Below, piece by piece: positions 1 to 7,971 of a stretch of 7,971 nucleotides of DNA (position 1 is the stretch's first letter; each line of letters begins with the position of its first letter). The position numbers were made by a program, and so were the translations under genes. The stretch spans positions 1 to 7,971 of the IMG/VR virus record IMGVR_UViG_2600255005_000004. One strand, 5' to 3'. The notes below the pieces were generated by a model, which was given only the letters and a program-made list of their open reading frames with translations, was not told the DNA's origin and made no database searches. The DNA comes from a virus (taxonomy: Duplodnaviria > Heunggongvirae > Uroviricota > Caudoviricetes).

Positions 1-222
1 TTAACACTTCTGATAAATAATCCATTCAACACTCCCACAACAAAAAGCCACAGCAATCAAAAAATGAGCACGCAGAATCAAAATGCTCTCTAATCGTAAC
101 GCATTTTGAGATTTTTGATACGTTTTTTTGGGATTATGTAACGCCAAATGGTCATTTTGTGTCAGAAAAATAAATCTTAGTACCGAGAATATGTAGCTTC
201 CATCCTTCATCGTTCTATTCAT
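1..222 (-). CDS. hypothetical small protein (73 aa), possibly membrane-associated; coding status uncertain
   Basis: ORF whose ATG (220-222) overlaps the TGA (219-221) of the upstream gene in an ATGA arrangement suggesting translational coupling. Hydrophobic C-terminal stretch. Region is AT-rich, the peptide is not obviously protein-like, and the stop sits exactly at the window edge. Confidence 0.3.
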   Translation of the reverse strand: MNRTMKDGSYIFSVLRFIFLTQNDHLALHNPKKTYQKSQNALRLESILILRAHFLIAVAFCCGSVEWIIYQKC

Positions 223-650
223 CCCTGATCTCCAAGCCTCTCTCGAAAACCATTCTGATAAAACGCCAGCACACGCTGCATAACTTCACTCTTCCGGCAC
301 TCGCGACAGATTATGTTCAGACGCCTGTCGTAACGGCGTATTTCTCCGTCTGGTAATGACCAGATAAGGTCAGGATCAACCACAACCGGTTTCTTCACCT
401 TTGTCCTTGATAGTTTTTTGCGGGCGTTTTGCCAGTCTTTACGCGCCTGCTCAGACGGGAATAATCCGTAGCCTGAATTGTAAACATCACCACTGGCGAC
501 TAGTTCTCTGGCGAGAGTGCTTATGTAATACCTTGATGCACCGGTTTTAGCCTCCAGAGCCCGTAACGTCTCGCGACCGCTCAGAGGTACAAGTTCAACA
601 ACCTGTCCTTTAATTTTTTCTCGCTCTTCTGGTGTAAATACTTTTGCCAT
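219..650 (-). CDS. hypothetical prophage protein (143 aa) with a possible helix-turn-helix segment
   Basis: ATG at 650 preceded by a strong RBS (GGAGG, 5-nt spacer) 16 bp after the stop of the upstream gene. The track start at 665 is a TTG and less likely. Protein-like composition; same strand and operon as the replication genes. No family recognised. Confidence 0.6.
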   Translation of the reverse strand: MAKVFTPEEREKIKGQVVELVPLSGRETLRALEAKTGASRYYISTLARELVASGDVYNSGYGLFPSEQARKDWQNARKKLSRTKVKKPVVVDPDLIWSLPDGEIRRYDRRLNIICRECRKSEVMQRVLAFYQNGFRERLGDQG

Positions 651-665
651 AGGTGCCTCCGGCAA

Positions 666-1427
666 TCACTTTTCCGATGCAACATGGCGGGAAGAATCAG
701 TAATCTGTCGTACAATATCCCTGTGCTTGTTCAACTCACGCAGCGCGGCGCAGACACGCTCCCACTTCTGGAGATGATTTTTCGCCCGACGCAGTTCGCG
801 GTTTGCCATATGCAGTGATGGTAAAACCAGGTCATCCGCTCGCGTTTCAGTAAACGATGGCAGCGACTGCACAATGTCCGCCACAGTTTCTGTTTTAATA
901 TCTTCCTGTGTTGCAGCCTCCTGTACTGGTAACGCAACACCTGCGGTCTGAGGAAAGGCCTTACCATCAGTTTCCGCTACCGATGCTGCTTTCGGCTCTG
1001 CTGGTAAATTATCGCCCGGTATGCAGTAACGAAATTTACCGCCCTGATTTACGCGAATCAGACGACCTTTGCTGATTGCCATTGCCAGCGTTGAAGCCAC
1101 TTTGCGTGATGTGGTACCAAACAATGTAGCCAGCTCATCAGCCGTTTGTGGTCCTCGTTGTTCAATCGTCGCGGTTAAATCGCACTCTGAGATTTTCGCT
1201 ACTGTTGCTGTGGTGATTTCTTCCGGCAGTTCTGCCTGCGCTGGCTGTTCCTGCTGAATATTGTTATCAGCCACACGCCAGGTGTACGCGCTTTTATCAA
1301 CAAAACCAGCCTTTTTCAGTTCCCATAGTTCGTTCAGCACTTCTTCACGACTGATATCAAGTCGCGCAGCAAGTTCTATGGATGTGGCTTTTCCCATTGC
1401 TTTCAGTGCGTCAAAAACAGTCTCCAT
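666..1427 (-). CDS. hypothetical prophage protein (253 aa) with two winged-helix-like DNA-binding segments and an acidic linker
   Basis: Start chosen at ATG 1427 (METVFDALK...) with GGAG RBS 9 nt upstream. An alternative ATG at 1478 would overlap the DnaC-like gene by 29 nt. Two HTH-like segments ([30 protein letters not shown] and [35 protein letters not shown]) separated by an E/Q/A/T-rich linker. Family not recognised. Confidence 0.6.
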
Positions 1428-1449
1428 TAAATTTTTCTCCCGGTAAAAA

Positions 1450-2196
1450 TTACTTCGCAATTCCTGGCTGGACGACATTCGGACGCCAGCTCTCCCAGTT
1501 AAAATTCACCCATCGCCCGCCGTTCATGGTCATGCGATCCATAATCCGCTCGCCGAGCAATGTTTTCATGGCCTCATAGTTCAGGTTTGTCAGCATCCCC
1601 ACGCTGCGCATCGACGCTGTCCGGCGATCAACAATCTGGTGCAGTACCACCTGCTCGTTTTTCGTCTCGCGCTGAATGCCAATTTCATCAAGAACCAGCA
1701 GATCCACTTCGCATAGTTCCCGCAAAAATTTTTCGCCTGACTGCCCATCGTCATAGCTGGCGTGCAGGGCACTCATAACATCAGCCACGGTAACCACAAT
1801 CACTGTCTGACCGTCTTTCAGCAGGCGATTCCCGATAGCTGCCGCTAAGTGGTTCTTCCCGGTACCAGGTTTTCCGCTGAACGCAAAATTTGTACACCCG
1901 GTCATCAGTTCATCAGCGATGGATTTCGCCTGACTCAACGCGTATCGCTGCCCTTCGTTCTGCACCTGGTAATTCGAAAACGAGCATTTGCGGTGCAATG
2001 GCTGGATGCCAGAGCGATTCAGAATTTTTTCCACCCGCAACTGACGATTCTGACGGTTGATCTCCTCACAACGTTTCTGGCCTTCGGAAAGTTGCCACTC
2101 GCGCCACTCCGCTACCGTTTTGAATGGGGCGGTTACATGTGGCGGGGCCAGTCTGCGGATACGTTCAAGAATGCCGCCTGCCGCAATATTTTTCAT
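1450..2196 (-). CDS. DnaC/IstB-like AAA+ replicative helicase loader (YdaV-like prophage replication protein)
   Basis: Walker [16 protein letters not shown] and Walker B LLVLDEIG. 248 aa, close to the 246-aa YdaV of K-12 Rac as recalled. GGGGG RBS upstream of ATG 2196, 7 nt after the stop of the initiator gene. Confidence 0.9.
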
Positions 2197-2202
2197 GGTC
2201 AG

Positions 2203-2991
2203 TTACCCCCTGAAGCCTGGCGGGATCGCACTATCCGGTAACGAGACGGTGTTAACCTGTCGGAGTAACGTCTCAGGTCGAACACCTTTTGGCGCGAACA
2301 AGCCCTGGTATTCATTGGCGATGCTGTGTCGAATCACCTGCTCAGGTGAAAAACCCTGCTGGCGGAATTTTTCCAGCTCCCGTATCGCCCCGTTAGCGCC
2401 CTGCTCCGTTCGAATCGGTTTTCGCAATGCCTGCCTGAACTGAACCCACTCATGCCAGAGTGTTTCCGGCAACCAGTCAGGCAGCTCGATAGCCTCCGGT
2501 TCGAATTTTTTAGACGCTCGTTTTTGGCGAGGGGGATTTAGGGGGAGATAAGTATTTATATCTTCCTCTTTCTCTTCCTCTGGTAACGCTTTTTGATCCG
2601 TTTTTGTAACGCTGGCAGCGTTACCTTTTCGTTTCAGTTCTCGTATTTTTGTTACTCTCTCGTTTGTAACCGCCCGTTTTTTAGAGCTTTTCCCGTTATG
2701 GCGCTCAAAGTTAGGAAGCGACAACACACCATTAGTTTCGACCAGCCATCCAACCTGAATTAACGCATCAGCAAAACCAGCCATAAAAGTGATGCGATCT
2801 ATTGCACTTTTTGTAACGCCGCGAGCGTTACACTCTGCGTTACCGTCTATCATTTGTTGATCCGCCCATGCCCAGAAGCGAATGACTTTCCCTAATGCGG
2901 CATCTGGATCAATATTCAGAATCTCAGCAAGCCTGAATATTTCCGGCTTATCCGGCGTAATAACTTCGAGCTTTATCCAGTTTGAAGCCAT
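2203..2991 (-). CDS. prophage replication initiator, YdaU/lambda-O-like (262 aa)
   Basis: Sits immediately upstream of the DnaC-like loader, the O-then-P arrangement of lambdoid phages. AGGTGA RBS 6 nt before ATG 2991. K/E-rich central linker whose DNA carries GTAACGC palindromes and T tracts. Assignment is by synteny and architecture, not verified by search. Confidence 0.75.
   Translation of the reverse strand: MASNWIKLEVITPDKPEIFRLAEILNIDPDAALGKVIRFWAWADQQMIDGNAECNARGVTKSAIDRITFMAGFADALIQVGWLVETNGVLSLPNFERHNGKSSKKRAVTNERVTKIRELKRKGNAASVTKTDQKALPEEEKEEDINTYLPLNPPRQKRASKKFEPEAIELPDWLPETLWHEWVQFRQALRKPIRTEQGANGAIRELEKFRQQGFSPEQVIRHSIANEYQGLFAPKGVRPETLLRQVNTVSLPDSAIPPGFRG
2606..2624. repeat. 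19-bp palindrome GTAACGCTggcAGCGTTAC (copy 1, inside initiator coding sequence)
   Basis: Perfect 8-bp inverted arms read directly. Sits in a cluster of GTAAC/GTTAC half-sites with T tracts between 2583 and 2670. Confidence 0.7.
2813..2831. repeat. 19-bp palindrome GTAACGCcgcgaGCGTTAC (copy 2, inside initiator coding sequence)
   Basis: 7-bp perfect arms with flanking T...A; an extra GCGTTAC half-site lies at 2837-2843. Confidence 0.7.
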
Positions 2992-3004
2992 TTGTTTTCA
3001 CCTT

Positions 3005-3023
3005 GTAACGCTCGCAGCGTTAC
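3005..3023. repeat. 19-bp palindrome GTAACGCTcgcAGCGTTAC (copy 3, in the ydaT-ydaU intergenic region, 14 bp upstream of the initiator ATG)
   Basis: Perfect 8-bp arms, extendable to 9 bp (TGTAACGCT / AGCGTTACA). Same motif as copies 1 and 2 at roughly 200-bp spacing. Confidence 0.7.
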
Positions 3024-3033
3024 ATTTAACTGA

Positions 3034-3055
3034 TACCGAACAAAACAGTTCGGTA
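3034..3055. repeat. perfect palindrome TACCGAAC-aaaaca-GTTCGGTA between the ydaT-like stop and the initiator start
   Basis: 8-bp perfect inverted arms with 6-nt spacer read directly. No flanking U-tract in either orientation, so more likely a protein-binding site or attenuating hairpin than a canonical terminator. Confidence 0.5.
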
Positions 3056-3068
3056 CGATTAATTTCAA

Positions 3069-3491
3069 TCAATGCACTACGACAGAATCGCTAGGAGAAC
3101 CGCCGCCGCTGAAATGTGCTTTACGGTAAACGGCCTGGACTGCATCATCATGCGCATCAATTGCCGTACTCAGTGCATCCTGTGCCGCCAGTAATGCACG
3201 GCGTTCCAGGGTATCGAAGATGCAGAGTCGGTGACGCAGCTCGCGAGGAAGAATTGCCAGAACCGCAGGGATCAGTTTCTGAATTTTTTCCCTTTGCGCA
3301 TTCGTTTCACCTTTCAACCAACGATGATAGATATTCTGCTGATTGTTCCAGTCCTTGCCTGGTACCAGGGGCAATTCGCCGCCCCCCTGGCGCAGATATT
3401 CTTCAGTAATTGCGTTAGCGACCCACGCCTGCCCTTTTTCGGCTGCCAGGGCTAACAACACTGATTCGATGTGCTCATGCTTGATTTTCAT
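3069..3491 (-). CDS. YdaT-like protein (CII-analogous regulator / toxic-when-derepressed family), 140 aa
   Basis: 140 aa, the same length as K-12 YdaT, beginning MKIKHEHI. Directly downstream of the Cro-like gene with ATGA start/stop overlap (3488-3491). Position is equivalent to cII/ydaT in Rac and CP-933P-type immunity regions. Confidence 0.65.
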   Translation of the reverse strand: MKIKHEHIESVLLALAAEKGQAWVANAITEEYLRQGGGELPLVPGKDWNNQQNIYHRWLKGETNAQREKIQKLIPAVLAILPRELRHRLCIFDTLERRALLAAQDALSTAIDAHDDAVQAVYRKAHFSGGGSPSDSVVVH

Positions 3492-3742
3492 GAATCAACT
3501 CCCATCAGCTTTTTCGTAGTAGTTTTATTTCTGCCAATAGTTAAAATTGCATCGGCAGAAAATAATCCGTTTGATGCATGAGCGATTTTTTCAGCGTAAT
3601 TTGTTTCGCCGGTATATTCTGTGCGAGGCAATTTTCCGTTATCCATCCATTTGTAGATTGCTCTTTGGCTGACACCACAAACGTCGGCCACAACAGAAAC
3701 GCGAACAGTTTTGATTACATCTTCAAGTGTTTTCTGGTTCAT
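3488..3742 (-). CDS. Cro/YdaS-like helix-turn-helix regulator (84 aa)
   Basis: HTH segment VADVCGVSQRAIYKWMDNGKLP. Start placed at ATG 3742 (MNQKTLEDV...) with GAGGG RBS. The upstream ATG at 3814 adds a Cys-rich junk-like N-terminus and lies inside the operator region. Divergent from the repressor gene. Confidence 0.75.
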   Translation of the reverse strand: MNQKTLEDVIKTVRVSVVADVCGVSQRAIYKWMDNGKLPRTEYTGETNYAEKIAHASNGLFSADAILTIGRNKTTTKKLMGVDS

Positions 3743-3757
3743 ATCACCCTCACAATG

Positions 3758-3829
3758 TGAACTTTGAGTACATGCTATAACAGAACTGACAGTACATTCA
3801 AGAGCGAATATCATTGAACTTATGGTTCA
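3758..3829. promoter_or_regulatory. OR-like divergent promoter/operator region: three 15-bp operator-like sites plus candidate back-to-back promoters
   Basis: Sites TGAACTttgAGTACA (3758-3772), AGAACTgacAGTACA (3782-3796) and TGAACTtatGGTTCA (3815-3829, overlapping the repressor ATG). Candidate repressor promoter: -35 CTGACA 3786-3791, 17-bp spacer, -10 TATCAT 3809-3814, start near the ATG. Candidate cro-side promoter on - strand: -35 TTGAAT (3796-3801), 16-bp spacer, -10 TATAGC (3774-3779). Confidence 0.55.
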
Positions 3830-4241
3830 TGAAGATAAAGCGCGTAAAGAGTTCGCCAGTAGGCTTGCGCTAGCCTGTGAAAACGCTGGTTATGAACAAC
3901 ATGGAAGGCAGGCAGAAATTGCCCGTCGAATGAAATTAACACCAAAAGCGGTTAGCAAATGGTTTAATGGTGAAACAATTCCTCGCCGAGAGAAATTAAG
4001 GGAATTAGCAACACTCATTGGAACAACACCAACCTATCTTTTGGGAGAGGATACAGAAGAAAGTGGACAGATACGTTTCTATCAGGAGTTAAATCCAAGA
4101 CAAAAAATCATCATTGACCTTCTGGACGAGCTCCCTGACAGTGAGACAGATGAACTTTTAAAAACTCTTGAGGAGAAAAAACAGAAGTACAATGCAATTT
4201 ACGAAGAGTTAGCACGAAAGAAAAAACAAAAAGCCTCTTAA
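3822..4241 (+). CDS. XRE-family prophage repressor (RacR-like / CI-like), 139 aa, no S24 peptidase domain
   Basis: N-terminal Cro/CI-type HTH (RQAEIARRMKLTPKAVSKWFNGETIP) and K/E-rich helical C-terminus. Divergent from the Cro-like gene across a 79-bp region holding repeated operator motifs. No SD sequence before the ATG, so probably leaderless like lambda cI from PRM. Differs in length from K-12 RacR (158 aa as recalled), so likely a different immunity type. Confidence 0.8.
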   Translation: MVHEDKARKEFASRLALACENAGYEQHGRQAEIARRMKLTPKAVSKWFNGETIPRREKLRELATLIGTTPTYLLGEDTEESGQIRFYQELNPRQKIIIDLLDELPDSETDELLKTLEEKKQKYNAIYEELARKKKQKAS

Positions 4242-4317
4242 ACCAGCATAAATCCGGTAGCGTCCCCCTCCGGGTTTGTGCTTCACTTTATCCCGTCTCA
4301 TTTTTTTATACATAAAA

Positions 4318-4360
4318 TGTACTTAAAGTACTTTACAATGATGAACACAAAGTACATTAT
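4318..4360 (+). promoter_or_regulatory. OL/PL-like early-left promoter with two operator-like sites
   Basis: Sites TGTACTtaaAGTACT (4318-4332) and TGAACAcaaAGTACA (4342-4356) share the OR-region motif. Candidate -35 TTTACA (4332-4337), 17-bp spacer, -10 CATTAT (4355-4360), reading rightward into ydaG/ydaF. Confidence 0.5.
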
Positions 4361-4528
4361 ATACCTACCAACCCACCCCGCCCCACAGAACGCCGGGCAA
4401 TACTTCGAGTTACCAGGCAGTGGTCAGGGGTTAAGTAGCCAGCCCGAGGCGTATGAACATGACGGCGGGATTCAAATTTTGCAGTGCAGCAGTTAGTTCC
4501 GCCACCCGGCGTTAAGGGGATAGATAAG

Positions 4529-4663
4529 ATGGTGCATTACGAAGTAGTTCAGTATTTGATGGATTGTTGCGGTATCACTTACAACCAGGCTGTGCAGGCT
4601 TTACGCAGCAACGACTGGGATCTCTGGCAGGCAGAAGTCGCTATACGTAGCAACAAGATGTGA
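4529..4663 (+). CDS. ydaG: small protein YdaG-like (44 aa)
   Basis: Below the ORF-track size cutoff. AAGGGGA RBS 8 nt upstream of the ATG. Clean 44-aa protein-like sequence (MVHYEVVQYLMDCCGITYNQAVQALRSNDWDLWQAEVAIRSNKM). Size and position next to the repressor match ydaG of Rac. Confidence 0.6.
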   Translation: MVHYEVVQYLMDCCGITYNQAVQALRSNDWDLWQAEVAIRSNKM

Positions 4664-4673
4664 GATTCGCAAA

Positions 4674-4829
4674 ATGCAAAAAATCGACCTCGGCAACAAC
4701 GAATCCCTGGTGTGCGGCGTGTTCCCCAACCAGGATGGAACGTTCACTGCCATGACGTATACCAAAAGCAAAACATTTAAAACCGAAACTGGTGCGCGCC
4801 GATGGTTGGAGAAGCACACAGTAAGCTAA
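4674..4829 (+). CDS. ydaF: small protein YdaF-like (51 aa)
   Basis: Below the ORF-track cutoff. 51 aa (MQKIDLGNNESLVCGVFPNQDGTF...), 10 nt after the ydaG stop. Size and position match ydaF of Rac. Its 3' end overlaps the 3' end of convergent sieB by 4 bp. Confidence 0.6.
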   Translation: MQKIDLGNNESLVCGVFPNQDGTFTAMTYTKSKTFKTETGARRWLEKHTVS

Positions 4830-5314
4830 CGATTAAAACGTCTACTCCTGCTGTTCCAGAATAACTTCATAAAATGGGAGTATTTTTCGGTGACGAGATA
4901 ATAAGAACAGTTTGCGCTATCACTCTGATGTTGAATGATGCCCTTCCGTTCTAATTTTTTCATAACCGGGTTACGGCAAGGAGAAGTGATAATAAGATTT
5001 CCTGTTTTAAGGAAATCTTTAAATACAGCGATTTCTTTCTCAGATAAACGAAGCAATACTCGTTGCTCTGGTAGTAATGAATAATGCTTTTGAATATGTG
5101 CTCGCAATCTTGAGAAGGAAATGGCGACCACGAAAGAAAAGGCAAAAACGATAATCTGAAAGAGCCAAGGTATTTCAGTATAAGCATTGAATGCGACAGT
5201 AAACTCTTTCGGTATCAGCCAGAGAGTGAGACCAAAAATGATAATCGTATACATAAGTCTTTCGAGTGGCTCGTTAGCAAAAAGTTTCAACAATGGAGTA
5301 AATACATCCAACAT
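4826..5314 (-). CDS. sieB: superinfection exclusion protein B (SieB), 162 aa membrane protein
   Basis: Start at internal ATG 5314 (MLDVFTPLLKLF...) gives 162 aa, the length recalled for SieB. Two hydrophobic TM-like segments. Antisense to the early-left operon between ydaF and kilR, as in Rac. Confidence 0.75.
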   Translation of the reverse strand: MLDVFTPLLKLFANEPLERLMYTIIIFGLTLWLIPKEFTVAFNAYTEIPWLFQIIVFAFSFVVAISFSRLRAHIQKHYSLLPEQRVLLRLSEKEIAVFKDFLKTGNLIITSPCRNPVMKKLERKGIIQHQSDSANCSYYLVTEKYSHFMKLFWNSRSRRFNR

Positions 5315-5532
5315 ATCAATAACTCTCAACTGTAAGGGTATTGAAATGTTAACACAAGCTCTCGCTGTAGGGGTATAGCCGAGACCACCGAAGCCCGGAG
5401 GTGGTGAAATAAAACCGGGCACAACACGAAGGCGCATTTCCGATATCCATAAAGAGTCGGTCTTGTCTGTTAAATTTAAATGGTGGGAGTGCGCCTCCGG
5501 TTGTAAATAACGACATTGCTGTGTGTAGTCCT

Positions 5533-5580
5533 GGCGGCATCAGTTTTTTTCTTGAAGTTCGGCTGATGTCCGCCCTTTTT
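5533..5580 (+). terminator. candidate intrinsic terminator or attenuator in the sieB-kilR intergenic region
   Basis: GGCGGCATCAG (5533-5543) pairs with CTGATGTCCGCC (5563-5574), 11 bp with one bulge, followed by CTTTTT. The 19-nt loop is long for a classical terminator. Orientation fits the + strand early-left transcript upstream of kilR. Confidence 0.4.
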
Positions 5581-5755
5581 AAAGTGAATTTTGTGATGCG
5601 GTGAATGCGGCTAAGCGCACGTGGCACAGTTAAAAGTCATGTTAGTCCTTATTGGTTTGGGTGGGAAAGCCGACTGTAATTGTTAACTGGTTGCAGTCAC
5701 CTGGAGGCACCAGGCACCGCATCAACAAAGTTCATTTGTAAAAATGGAGATAATT

Positions 5756-5977
5756 ATGATTGCACATCACTTCGGAACTGATGAAATACCACGTCAGTGT
5801 GTGACTCCTGGTGACTATGTTCTTCATGAAGGCCGGACATATATTGCCTCGGCAAACAATATTAAAAAGCGAAAACTTTATATTCGTAACCTGACCACAA
5901 AAACATGCATTACTGACTGCATGATTAAAGTCTTCCTCGGTCGTAATGGTTTACCTGTAAAGGCGGAGTCATGGTGA
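5756..5977 (+). CDS. kilR: KilR-like cell-division inhibitor (73 aa)
   Basis: Start at ATG 5756 ([10 protein letters not shown]...) with GGAG RBS 7 nt upstream gives 73 aa, the recalled KilR length. Divergent from sieB and followed by ydaE and racC as in Rac. Confidence 0.7.
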
Positions 5978-6147
5978 TGACTAAGAAAATAAAATGTGCT
6001 TACCACCTTTGCAATAAAGAAATTGAAGAAAGCAAAAGTATTAAAAGACCACTTCATTTCATGCGTGGAGTTATCCAAACGACGGAAATGAAAAAATATT
6101 GTAGTGAAAGTTGTGCCGAAAAAGACCAGATGGCACACGAACTTTAA
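5977..6147 (+). CDS. ydaE: YdaE-like small zinc-ribbon protein (56 aa)
   Basis: Below the ORF-track cutoff. ATG overlaps the kilR stop (TGATG). Two Cys pairs, CAYHLC and CSESC, suggest a zinc ribbon. 56 aa matches recalled ydaE. Confidence 0.65.
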   Translation: MTKKIKCAYHLCNKEIEESKSIKRPLHFMRGVIQTTEMKKYCSESCAEKDQMAHEL

Positions 6148-6220
6148 TTAACTGACTATGCGAAACTGAATTTATGCCAGCAATGGCAGGGACTCGCTCA
6201 ACCTTAATTAAGGAGAAAAC

Positions 6221-6469
6221 ATGATTACCAGTTATGAGGCCACTGTTGTAACTACTGATGACATTGTTCACGAGGTTAATCTGGAAGGAAAGCGTATTGG
6301 CTACGTGATTAAAACAGAAAATAAAGAAACCCCATTCACTGTGGTTGATATCGACGGTCCATCAGGCAACGTTAAAACACTTCACGAAGGTGTCAAAAAA
6401 ATGTGCCTGGTGCATACCGGAAAGAATCTGCCCGCAAGAAAAAAAAAGCCGAATTTCTGGCAACTCTAA
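6221..6469 (+). CDS. racC: RacC-like protein; C-terminus altered at an A9 homopolymer (82 aa in zero frame)
   Basis: Strong RBS (AAGGAG) before ATG 6221. Position between ydaE and recE as in Rac. An A9 run (6439-6447) precedes a short PNFWQL stop tail, whereas the -1 frame continues as AEFLATLIAMKIKR to a stop at 6490-6492, giving about 90 aa. Confidence 0.7.
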   Translation: MITSYEATVVTTDDIVHEVNLEGKRIGYVIKTENKETPFTVVDIDGPSGNVKTLHEGVKKMCLVHTGKNLPARKKKPNFWQL

Positions 6470-6504
6470 TTGCAATGAAAATTAAAAGGTGAAATCTGAA
6501 AGAA

Positions 6505-6529
6505 ATAGCCTGCGTATGGCGCAGGCTAT
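6505..6529. other. perfect 10-bp stem, 5-nt loop hairpin ATAGCCTGCG-tatgg-CGCAGGCTAT between racC and recE
   Basis: Read directly. No U-tract on the + strand; the - strand flank is only weakly T-rich. Function unclear. Confidence 0.35.
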
Positions 6530-6600
6530 GAACAGTGTGTATCCGGCAAGATCATTCACTGAACAAAACGAATTTTAATCTGAGTTGAGGTTAAAAAACA

Positions 6601-7971
6601 ATGAGCACAAAACCACTCTTCCTGTTACGGAAAGCGAAAAAATCATCCGGTGAACCTGACGTCGTCCTGTGGGCAAGCGACGATTTTGAATCGACCTGTG
6701 CCACTCTGGACTACCTGATCGTTAAGTCAGGTAAAAAACTGAGCAACTATTTTAAAGCTGTTGCCACAAATTTTCCTGTCGTTAATGACCTTCCCCCTGA
6801 AGGTGAGATCGATTTTACCTGGAGTGAACGCTATCAACTCAGCAAAGACTCCATGACATGGGAACTAAAACCGGGAGCAGCGCCAGACGACGTTCACCAC
6901 CAGGATAATGCTCAAGAAACCAACGAACTGGCGGGAGGCCAGGAAGAAAACGCGCAGGCAGACGCCCACGAGGATTGCCAGGATTGCGAAGTCTCTGTAG
7001 CCACTTTGCGGTTCACACAGCGTCTTCTGCACATTTTTACGTATGCGGCCGGGGATCGGAAATACCTGCATCATGCCACCCGAGAACAACGCGAACACAT
7101 TACTGCTCTTGAGATGGATCAGGAAAACAGCTATGTCCAGAATCTGCTGTTGGCCATACGCGGCATGGCAGAACCGACAACTCTGGATAATGCCGCCCTG
7201 CTCCACCTGACTGATGCAATTAAGGCAGTTTTCTCTATCACTAAAAAACATCAGCCCTATGAATTTAAGAATTTCATTTCAGCCTGGCTGGATACCGAAC
7301 ACATTGATCGCGGTCTTCTGACAAAAGAATGGCGAAAAGGGAATCGTGTTTCACGCATCACTCGCACGGCTTCCGGTGCTAATGCTGGCGGCGGGAACCT
7401 CACAGATCGCGGCGAAGGTTTCGTCCACGATCTGACGTCACTGGCGCGCGATATAGCCACTGGCGTACTGGCCCGTTCAATGGACGTGGACATCTATAAC
7501 CTTCATCCGGCACACGCTAAACGCATTGAGGAAATTATCGCTGAAAATAAACCGCCCTTTTCTGTTTTCCGCGACAAATTCATCACCATGCCTGGCGGGC
7601 TGGATTATTCCCGCGCCATCGTGGTTGCGTCCGTGAAAGAAGCACCAATTGGGATCGAGGTCATCCCCGCTCACGTCACTGCATATCTGAACAAAGTACT
7701 GACTGAAACCGATCATGCCAACCCTGATCCGGAAATCGTGGATATTGCCTGCGGTCGCTCCTCTGCCCCGATGCCGCAGCGAGTAACAGAAGAAGGAAAA
7801 CAGGATGATGAAGAAAAACTGCAACCATCTGGAACAACGGCAGCGTTTTTATGCCTGGCGAATTGCCTGTTCAACCTCAAAGCGATTTGTCACTTTGCTG
7901 TCGATTTTCACGTAAGCCGAATGTTCTTCTTCTGCAATCAACACTTCTTTGACGCCAGCCGTTTCCAGTAA
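6601..7971 (+). pseudogene. recE: recE (exonuclease VIII) N-terminal fragment, disrupted after about codon 411; the remaining ORF is antisense read-through of a convergent gene
   Basis: N-terminus [26 protein letters not shown]... and the segment [38 protein letters not shown]... match RecE of Rac as recalled. After ...EEKLQPSG (about 7833) the translation turns Cys/Phe-rich and junk-like while the opposite strand encodes a clean protein C-terminus. The C-terminal nuclease domain of the roughly 866-aa RecE is absent. Confidence 0.7.
7849..7971 (-). CDS. 3' end (last 40 codons) of an unidentified convergent gene; the gene start lies beyond the window
   Basis: Minus-strand frame reads ...[40 protein letters not shown] with stop at 7849-7851. 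Soluble-protein-like composition, while the sense recE frame degenerates in the same interval. Confidence 0.45.

Follow-up and report, generated by a model that had tools for sequence, protein, structure and literature searches.

Palindromic sites within and upstream of the initiator gene of a Rac-like Escherichia coli prophage as its probable replication origin

The DNA analyzed here, referred to as the window, comprises positions 1 to 7,971 of the IMG/VR record IMGVR_UViG_2600255005_000004 (7,971 nucleotides) and corresponds to a Rac-like lambdoid prophage of Escherichia coli. Its minus strand encodes a replication initiator of 262 amino acids (2203–2991), and three copies of a 19-bp palindrome, GTAACGC-N5-GCGTTAC, are found within and just upstream of this gene. 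Many E. coli chromosomes match the window with 100% identity, and the isolated phages vB_EcoS-666R9, 673R7 and 613R10 match it with 99.5% identity; the match to these phages indicates that the module is functional in viable phages. A gene for a DnaC/IstB-like helicase loader (ydaV-like; 1450–2196, minus strand; PF01695, E 9.4e-20) lies directly downstream of the initiator gene. On the other side, a ydaT/CII-like gene (3069–3491) and a cro-like gene (3488–3814) are also carried by the minus strand, followed by a cI-like repressor gene on the plus strand (3822–4241). The DUF1627 and DUF977 genes, which encode helix-turn-helix (HTH) proteins, are located on the minus strand as well.

Palindromes, half-sites and the purine tract

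The three exact copies of the palindrome occupy positions 2606–2624 (site B), 2813–2831 (site A) and 3005–3023 (site C), with spacings of 207 and 192 bp, and extend to 8-nt arms (TGTAACGC / GCGTTACA), so that the extended site C spans 3004–3024. No further match was found in the whole window with up to two mismatches allowed. In dinucleotide-preserving shuffles the palindrome occurs 0.01 times on average, and three or more copies were obtained in 0 of 200 shuffles. The 7-mer half-site GTAACGC is found 11 times in the window against 0.75 expected, and eight of these occurrences fall within 2583–3023. A first-pass annotation of this DNA, made from the sequence alone, had listed the three palindromes, two of them in frame in coding sequence, together with extra half-sites starting at 2583 and 2837; exact matching, the shuffles and the half-site counts confirm both observations. 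The same annotation saw a wider cluster of GTAAC/GTTAC motifs. The 5-mers at 2650–2671 are not codon-conserved in homologues (V113 is specified by mixed codons), and we take them as chance occurrences.

Site C (GTAACGC-TCGCA-GCGTTAC) is non-coding and falls within the 77-nt gap that separates the ydaT-like gene from the initiator gene, where it ends 13 nt 5' of the initiator ATG and abuts an AGGTGA Shine-Dalgarno sequence. This gap had been described as promoter-proximal, a description that is not supported, as no sigma-70-like promoter was found on the gene strand in the gap. The other two sites are in frame inside the 262-residue reading frame. Site A (GTAACGC-CGCGA-GCGTTAC, gene offset +160) is located in the region coding for the N-terminal domain (N-domain), where the codons TGT AAC GCT CGC GGC GTT ACA specify CNARGVT. 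Site B (GTAACGC-TGGCA-GCGTTAC, gene offset +367) is located in the linker-coding DNA between the N-domain and the C-terminal domain (C-domain), and encodes residues 123–129 (GNAASVT) at the start of a disordered linker.

Two extra half-sites accompany the coding palindromes. The one at 2837–2843 (GTAACGC on the gene strand, read as GGT AAC GCA) starts 12 nt from the start of site A's left arm and originates from a 4-codon insertion (GNAE) that is found only in Enterobacterales. The other, at 2583–2589, is an orphan half-site that reads GCGTTAC on the gene strand, where GCG TTA CC encodes part of an 'ALP' motif. It follows the right arm of site B at 23 nt and precedes a homopurine tract at 2561–2581 by 1 nt; on the plus strand, this tract appears as a 21-nt pyrimidine run. 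The sense (minus) strand of the tract reads AGAGGAAGAGAAAGAGGAAGA (opening AGAGAAGAG) and encodes EEEKEED; its codons are locked, and the region has 40% GC, a moderate AT-richness.

Additional elements were observed in the window. Half-sites outside the initiator region are located at 96–102, 138–144 and 929–935; two of the three point the same way, separated by 42 nt, in AT-rich DNA downstream of the DUF977 gene, and one lies within the DUF1627 gene. The ydaT–initiator gap also contains a perfect 8-bp inverted repeat, TACCGAAC-N6-GTTCGGTA, at 3034–3055, 10 nt from site C; L003 and L004, relatives from Shigella/E. coli, carry this repeat in degenerate form.

Conservation of the sites and their inheritance with the N-domain

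The initiator is composed of an N-domain (residues 1 to ~125), a disordered linker (~125–175) and a C-domain. It matches PHROG 2509, 'replication initiation protein', over its full length (residues 1–262, E 4.7e-88); the function label of this family is an annotation by inference, and we know of no experiment on it. A search of Pfam gave zero matches even at E <= 10, and thus none to Phage_rep_O (PF04492) or DUF1376 (PF07120), no useful match was obtained in NCBIfam, and no sequence relative was found in the PDB. In a BLASTP comparison with YdaU of the K-12 Rac prophage, only residues 139–262 of the initiator (124 residues) align, with 81% identity to YdaU residues 162–285, and the N-domain therefore belongs to a family other than DUF1376. 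Profile comparisons with hhalign are in line with this assignment, with probabilities of 0.5% against lambda O and 0.2% against the DUF1376 N-domain of K-12 YdaU. The earlier designation of the protein as YdaU/O-like is thus apt for its C-terminal half, which is YdaU-like, and not for its N-domain, which comes from a different, unannotated family. The predicted topology of the N-domain, in which a beta hairpin comes after two short helices, fits a winged helix. Fold searches with this domain gave no significant match; in Foldseek, the RepA_N initiators 4pta and 5kbj appeared at E about 0.6–1. In AlphaFold models, site A encodes a low-confidence surface loop between helices 29–46 and 61–68. With site A encoding this loop and site B the start of the disordered linker, protein constraint is expected to be weak at both sites.

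Searches with an N-domain profile against one-genome-per-species bacterial contigs and against viral contigs revealed 64 bacterial loci (Enterobacterales, Planctomycetes, Verrucomicrobia, Burkholderiales, Pseudomonas, Acidobacteria and others) and more than 500 viral contigs. The named phages that encode the domain are TL-2011b, epsilon15, Xanthomonas CP2, Xylella Usme-like, Pseudomonas VW-6S, phiPSA1 and Ralstonia phages. At protein identities of 40–55%, most non-verrucomicrobial loci carry an exact GTAAC-N9-GTTAC at offset +148, +151 or +160, corresponding to site A, and a second palindrome at +334 to +412, corresponding to site B. The distance between the two has a median of 213 bp (range 189–264), and no further palindrome matches were found in the ~6 kb flanking the homologues. 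The upstream copy, site C, is confined to Enterobacterales, where it is found at -32 to -44 in E. coli/Shigella, Winslowiella, Serratia and Pantoea. All three sites are present in 70 of 80 close viral relatives.

Some homologous loci depart from this arrangement. In Pantoea sp. BAV 3049 (L008), site C is contained in a ~45-nt copy (-60 to -15) of the context of that gene's own site A (GACGGTAACGCAAATAGTAACGCTGCGAGCGTTACAAAAAGCG), which shows that local duplication spreads the sites. The homologues from Verrucomicrobia (L029–L053) have no full palindromes at positions A and B; they retain GTAACGC at -57 and GCGTTAC at +160 and +252, and carry variant palindromes, TAACGA-N5-TCGTTA, at +538 and +721. 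Possible use of the initiator by plasmids is represented by just two circular, phage-like records. The Pusillimonas sp. T7-7 'plasmid' NC_015459, a 41-kb circular record typed as a plasmid, has a phage-like genome (terminase, NinB, CII-like) that encodes this initiator next to an ATP-binding loader; it could be a phage-plasmid that replicates from this origin.

Synonymous positions within the sites were analyzed in 41 representatives sharing less than 80% identity, with gene GC contents of 45–67%, by comparing the observed counts of each codon with its background fraction. At the arms of site A, the codons are GGT in 26 of 32 genes (background 0.24), AAC in all 32 (0.64) and GTT in 31 of 32 (0.34); the Ser codon is AGC in 19 of 19 (0.27), and GGC is used in 13 of 15. 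As a control, columns with an invariant Gly, Asn or Val in other parts of the initiator proteins display mixed codons. Site B occurs in all three reading frames among the homologues, where it is translated as xNAxSVT, VTxxAL(P/Q) or xSRxxRD. The 'ALP' motif of the orphan half-site, located 11 or 23 nt past site B, is encoded by GCG TTA CC in 21 of 22 lineages, and a control 'ALT' motif uses mixed Leu codons. The conservation of these partnerless half-sites with a locked TTA codon fits a half-site that is read on the DNA, and not as a hairpin. Synonymous-site conservation, which the first-pass annotation had put forward as a check, is therefore strongly positive, and on these computed comparisons the palindromes are evidently under nucleotide-level selection that is independent of the reading frame.

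The homopurine tract is conserved at the same level. It reads AGAGAAGAGAAGAGAAGAG in most lineages and begins 0–2 or 13 nt past the last half-site. Within the charged peptide runs of the linker, 47 of 57 Arg codons are AGA, against 35 of 495 elsewhere in the genes; the 10 exceptions fall in charged runs other than the GA tract, in which Arg is always encoded by AGA. In 23 of 43 genes there is a run of 19 or more purines, compared with 0.8% of codon-shuffled genes.

Variants of the half-site occur in a concerted manner, as all copies and half-sites within a gene carry one and the same variant. The form GTCACGC-N5-GCGTGAC arose at least three times, in the clade of L055, L056, L059, L060 and L062, in L028 and in L043. 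It is found at both A and B in L055, L056, L060 and L062, at site A and a linker half-site in L028, and at site B and two half-sites in L043. The occurrences in L028 and L043 are independent, and both proteins are closer to proteins of the GTAAC class. In this GTCAC class, a nonsynonymous AAC to CAC change (N to H) in one arm is paired in six of six cases with a synonymous GTT to GTG change in the other. Overall, the arm codons pair as AAC/GTT in 31 cases and as CAC/GTG in 6, with zero crosses. Two further variants are CTAACGC-N5-GCGTTAG, at A and B in L046, and GTTACGC-N5-GCGTAAC in L025. In the distant epsilon15/phiPSA1 branch, the palindrome is GTCCGCA-N5-(A/T)GCGGAC and occurs twice inside the initiator gene, at +65 and +344 in epsilon15 and at +65 and +365 in phiPSA1, followed by the same AGAGAAGAGAAG tract. 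Classes whose palindromes differ, epsilon15 included, have the tract in common, which makes it a shared element and not one that confers specificity.

A comparison with the K-12 Rac prophage reveals which part of the locus the sites accompany. K-12 Rac has a YdaT that is 94% identical, the closely related C-domain described above and the same loader, but an unrelated DUF1376 N-domain; its ydaT–ydaU gap is 12 bp, and K-12 Rac lacks the palindrome even with up to three mismatches allowed. Since YdaT, the C-domain and the loader are shared, the N-domain, the upstream gap and the palindromes are swapped as one unit. Joint exchange of the initiator N-domain and its sites is the pattern by which lambdoid phages are known to exchange origin-specificity modules. 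Among 120 IMG/VR stretches with an exact palindrome, an arbitrary sample, the N-domain is encoded within 1.5 kb in 102, and in all 52 stretches that contain two or more palindromes. In viral DNA, the palindrome thus comes close to being a diagnostic mark of this initiator.

At 37 diverse palindrome-bearing loci, the other DNA-binding proteins of the window are rare, with 0 occurrences of DUF1627, 0 of DUF977, 2 of YdaT and 1 of the cro-like protein. Two candidate readers of the palindromes were rejected on these grounds: the downstream DUF1627 and DUF977 proteins, for which the sites had been suggested to be operators, are encoded at none of the 37 loci, and the YdaT/CII-like protein is nearly identical in K-12 Rac, which has no sites. 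PMC11014345 mentions the target of the CP-933P YdaT only indirectly. Phages of E. coli/Salmonella and of Pseudomonas display two or three half-site classes per host group. As different classes occur in phages of one host genus, specificity tracks the phage gene and not the host. The sites are inherited with the N-domain and no other gene, and switch specificity together; their most economical reader would be the N-domain acting as a dimer.

A probable origin and the competing explanations

Together with the two extra half-sites and the homopurine tract beside them, the three palindromes probably constitute the cis-acting replication origin of the prophage, positioned within and just upstream of its own initiator gene. 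The first-pass annotation had proposed an initiator-bound origin resembling lambda ori in the O linker, and the comparative evidence lends support to this proposal. In the mechanism that we envisage, dimers of the initiator N-domain would bind each of the 19-bp palindromes (sites C, A and B), and further protomers would occupy the orphan half-sites. The occupied sites, ~200 bp apart, might then build a looped or wrapped nucleoprotein complex over about 400 bp. The duplex would open at the GA-rich homopurine tract beside site B, which is proposed as a duplex-opening or loading element, and the YdaU-type C-domain may recruit the DnaC-like YdaV loader with host DnaB. The C-domain of the family differs by loader type, being of the YdaU type with a DnaC-like loader here and DnaT-like elsewhere. 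Early transcription of the rightward type, from a promoter on the cro side, would cross the whole element, in which an internal promoter was not found, and may contribute, as in lambda.

The binding evidence that favors an origin applies equally to an autoregulatory role, in which the initiator, bound at the ribosome-binding region (site C) and within its own gene (sites A and B), would repress or roadblock the initiator–loader operon, with the origin located elsewhere. Iteron plasmids have operators of this kind, formed by inverted repeats to which Rep dimers bind, and site C is immediately 5' of the Shine-Dalgarno sequence in several Enterobacterales. We nevertheless regard this explanation as unlikely, because the gene strand has no promoter-like site near site C, site C is missing outside Enterobacterales whereas A and B are near-universal, the conserved half-site and homopurine tract next to site B correspond to an origin-type layout, and the 6-kb loci show no other repeated element. 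Both roles, origin and autoregulation, could coexist, especially at site C. A comparably low likelihood is assigned to the possibility that the GA homopurine tract is itself the actual initiation element, common to all specificity classes including epsilon15. As the tract lies on the sense strand, early transcription would yield a purine-rich RNA that forms an unusually stable R-loop beside the initiator-bound palindromes, or the tract would form a triplex there, and the origin would be transcription-coupled, RNA-primed or opened by an R-loop. If this were true, the peptide motifs GNAxSVT, ALP and REEKRREE would be by-products of cis-acting DNA and would not reflect protein function.

Three other explanations fare considerably worse. 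Hairpins in the early transcript (7–8 bp stem, 3–5 nt loop) might govern how the initiator mRNA is translated or processed, or how stable it is. Every site can indeed fold, the ydaT–initiator leader RNA has a folding z of -3.6, and complementarity is kept when arm positions 1 and 3 change. However, positions 2 and 4–6 of the arms are invariant in ~40 lineages, where a pure hairpin would allow many compensatory pairs, and all copies within a gene switch to one new sequence, which independent hairpins would not have to do. Moreover, the single mismatches observed are G-G, C-C, C-A and A-G, not G-U, and the codons of the partnerless orphan half-sites are locked, making control by hairpins very improbable. 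We consider it just as improbable that another protein binds the sites, be it the YdaT/CII-like, Cro/CI-like, DUF1627 or DUF977 protein or a host factor. Several HTH proteins are encoded nearby, and YdaT has been reported to act in cis within Rac (PMC11014345). Against this stands the presence of each of these proteins at only 0 to 4 of the 37 diverse loci, together with the absence of sites next to the K-12 Rac YdaT; for a host factor, the coexistence of different specificity classes in one host genus is equally unfavorable. The notion that a conserved peptide motif (GNAxSVT) gave rise to the repeats as a by-product, or that they are a coincidence, can practically be dismissed. The protein alignment does show N51, V59 and T60 as invariant, as this notion would predict, but the synonymous positions are locked, unlike those of the invariant control residues, site B is used in three frames, site C is non-coding, and the chance expectation is two orders of magnitude below one copy.

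Relation to known origins and significance

The location of an origin inside the initiator gene, with dyad sites in linker-coding DNA, is a classical principle. The origin of lambda is situated midway within the O gene and contains 19-bp inverted-repeat iterons and an AT-rich tract (PMC7466680). In the lambda sequence, an 18-nt run of purines comes after the four tandem iterons, on the sense strand of O and within the AT-rich region. The probable origin of the window shares with lambda O/ori, and with P22 gene 18 and the O genes of Stx phages, its placement where the initiator gene codes for the linker; this linker joins an N-domain that binds the origin to a C-domain that recruits the loader, both of them predicted roles here. 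Both have a 19-bp inverted-repeat binding unit followed by a sense-strand purine run, and in both the N-domain and the sites are exchanged as one specificity module. By contrast, the N-domain described here has no detectable homology to that of lambda O, and the 4–6 tandem iterons of the lambda type are replaced by one linker palindrome and an orphan half-site. A second palindrome is located ~210 bp upstream, in the region coding for the folded N-domain, and a third, in Enterobacterales only, precedes the gene. The purine tract is GA-rich instead of A-rich, and is conserved at the nucleotide level across phyla. A further difference is that the region is only moderately AT-rich.

With the YdaU/oriJ region of K-12 Rac, which represents the same prophage type, the window shares the gene order (racR/cI-like, ydaS/cro-like, ydaT, initiator, ydaV) and the 124 C-terminal residues of the initiator followed by the ydaV loader gene, and differs in the unrelated N-domain and the GTAACGC palindromes, which K-12 lacks. 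The K-12 Rac ydaU gene (L001) contains direct repeats of its own, GATGTTCAA(ACA), at 2763, 2848, 3007, 3042 and 3050, which are candidate iterons of the K-12 Rac origin.

Iteron-plasmid Rep proteins (the winged-helix RepA, pi and RepE) bind palindromes as dimers and half-sites as monomers, and their genes adjoin or overlap their own sites. The combination of palindromes suited to dimers with single half-sites is similar in the window, whereas a tandem iteron array is not present and the fold match is not significant. In the Bacillus phage SPP1, the sites of G38P at oriL lie in the initiator's own gene, and a second set of sites is distant. The SPP1 protein is unrelated, however, and its sites are direct AB boxes forming two origins tens of kb apart. 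No description of the recognition sequence of the present family, of the dispersed layout of two or three palindromes, or of the phylum-spanning GA tract was found in the literature.

These results supply a testable origin and a recognition sequence for a widespread initiator family for which neither a Pfam or NCBIfam model nor a solved structure exists, and which spans the Rac-like prophages of E. coli/Shigella, epsilon15, TL-2011b, and phages of Xanthomonas, Xylella, Pseudomonas and Ralstonia. They also provide a case in which cis-acting DNA dictates protein sequence, with one 19-bp site accommodated in three reading frames and its codons locked across phyla. The natural switches between GTAAC, GTCAC, CTAAC and GTCCGC could help to map the residues responsible for recognition. 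The palindrome and the GA tract, taken together, could serve to annotate origins in thousands of prophages and yield orthogonal pairs of origins and initiators.
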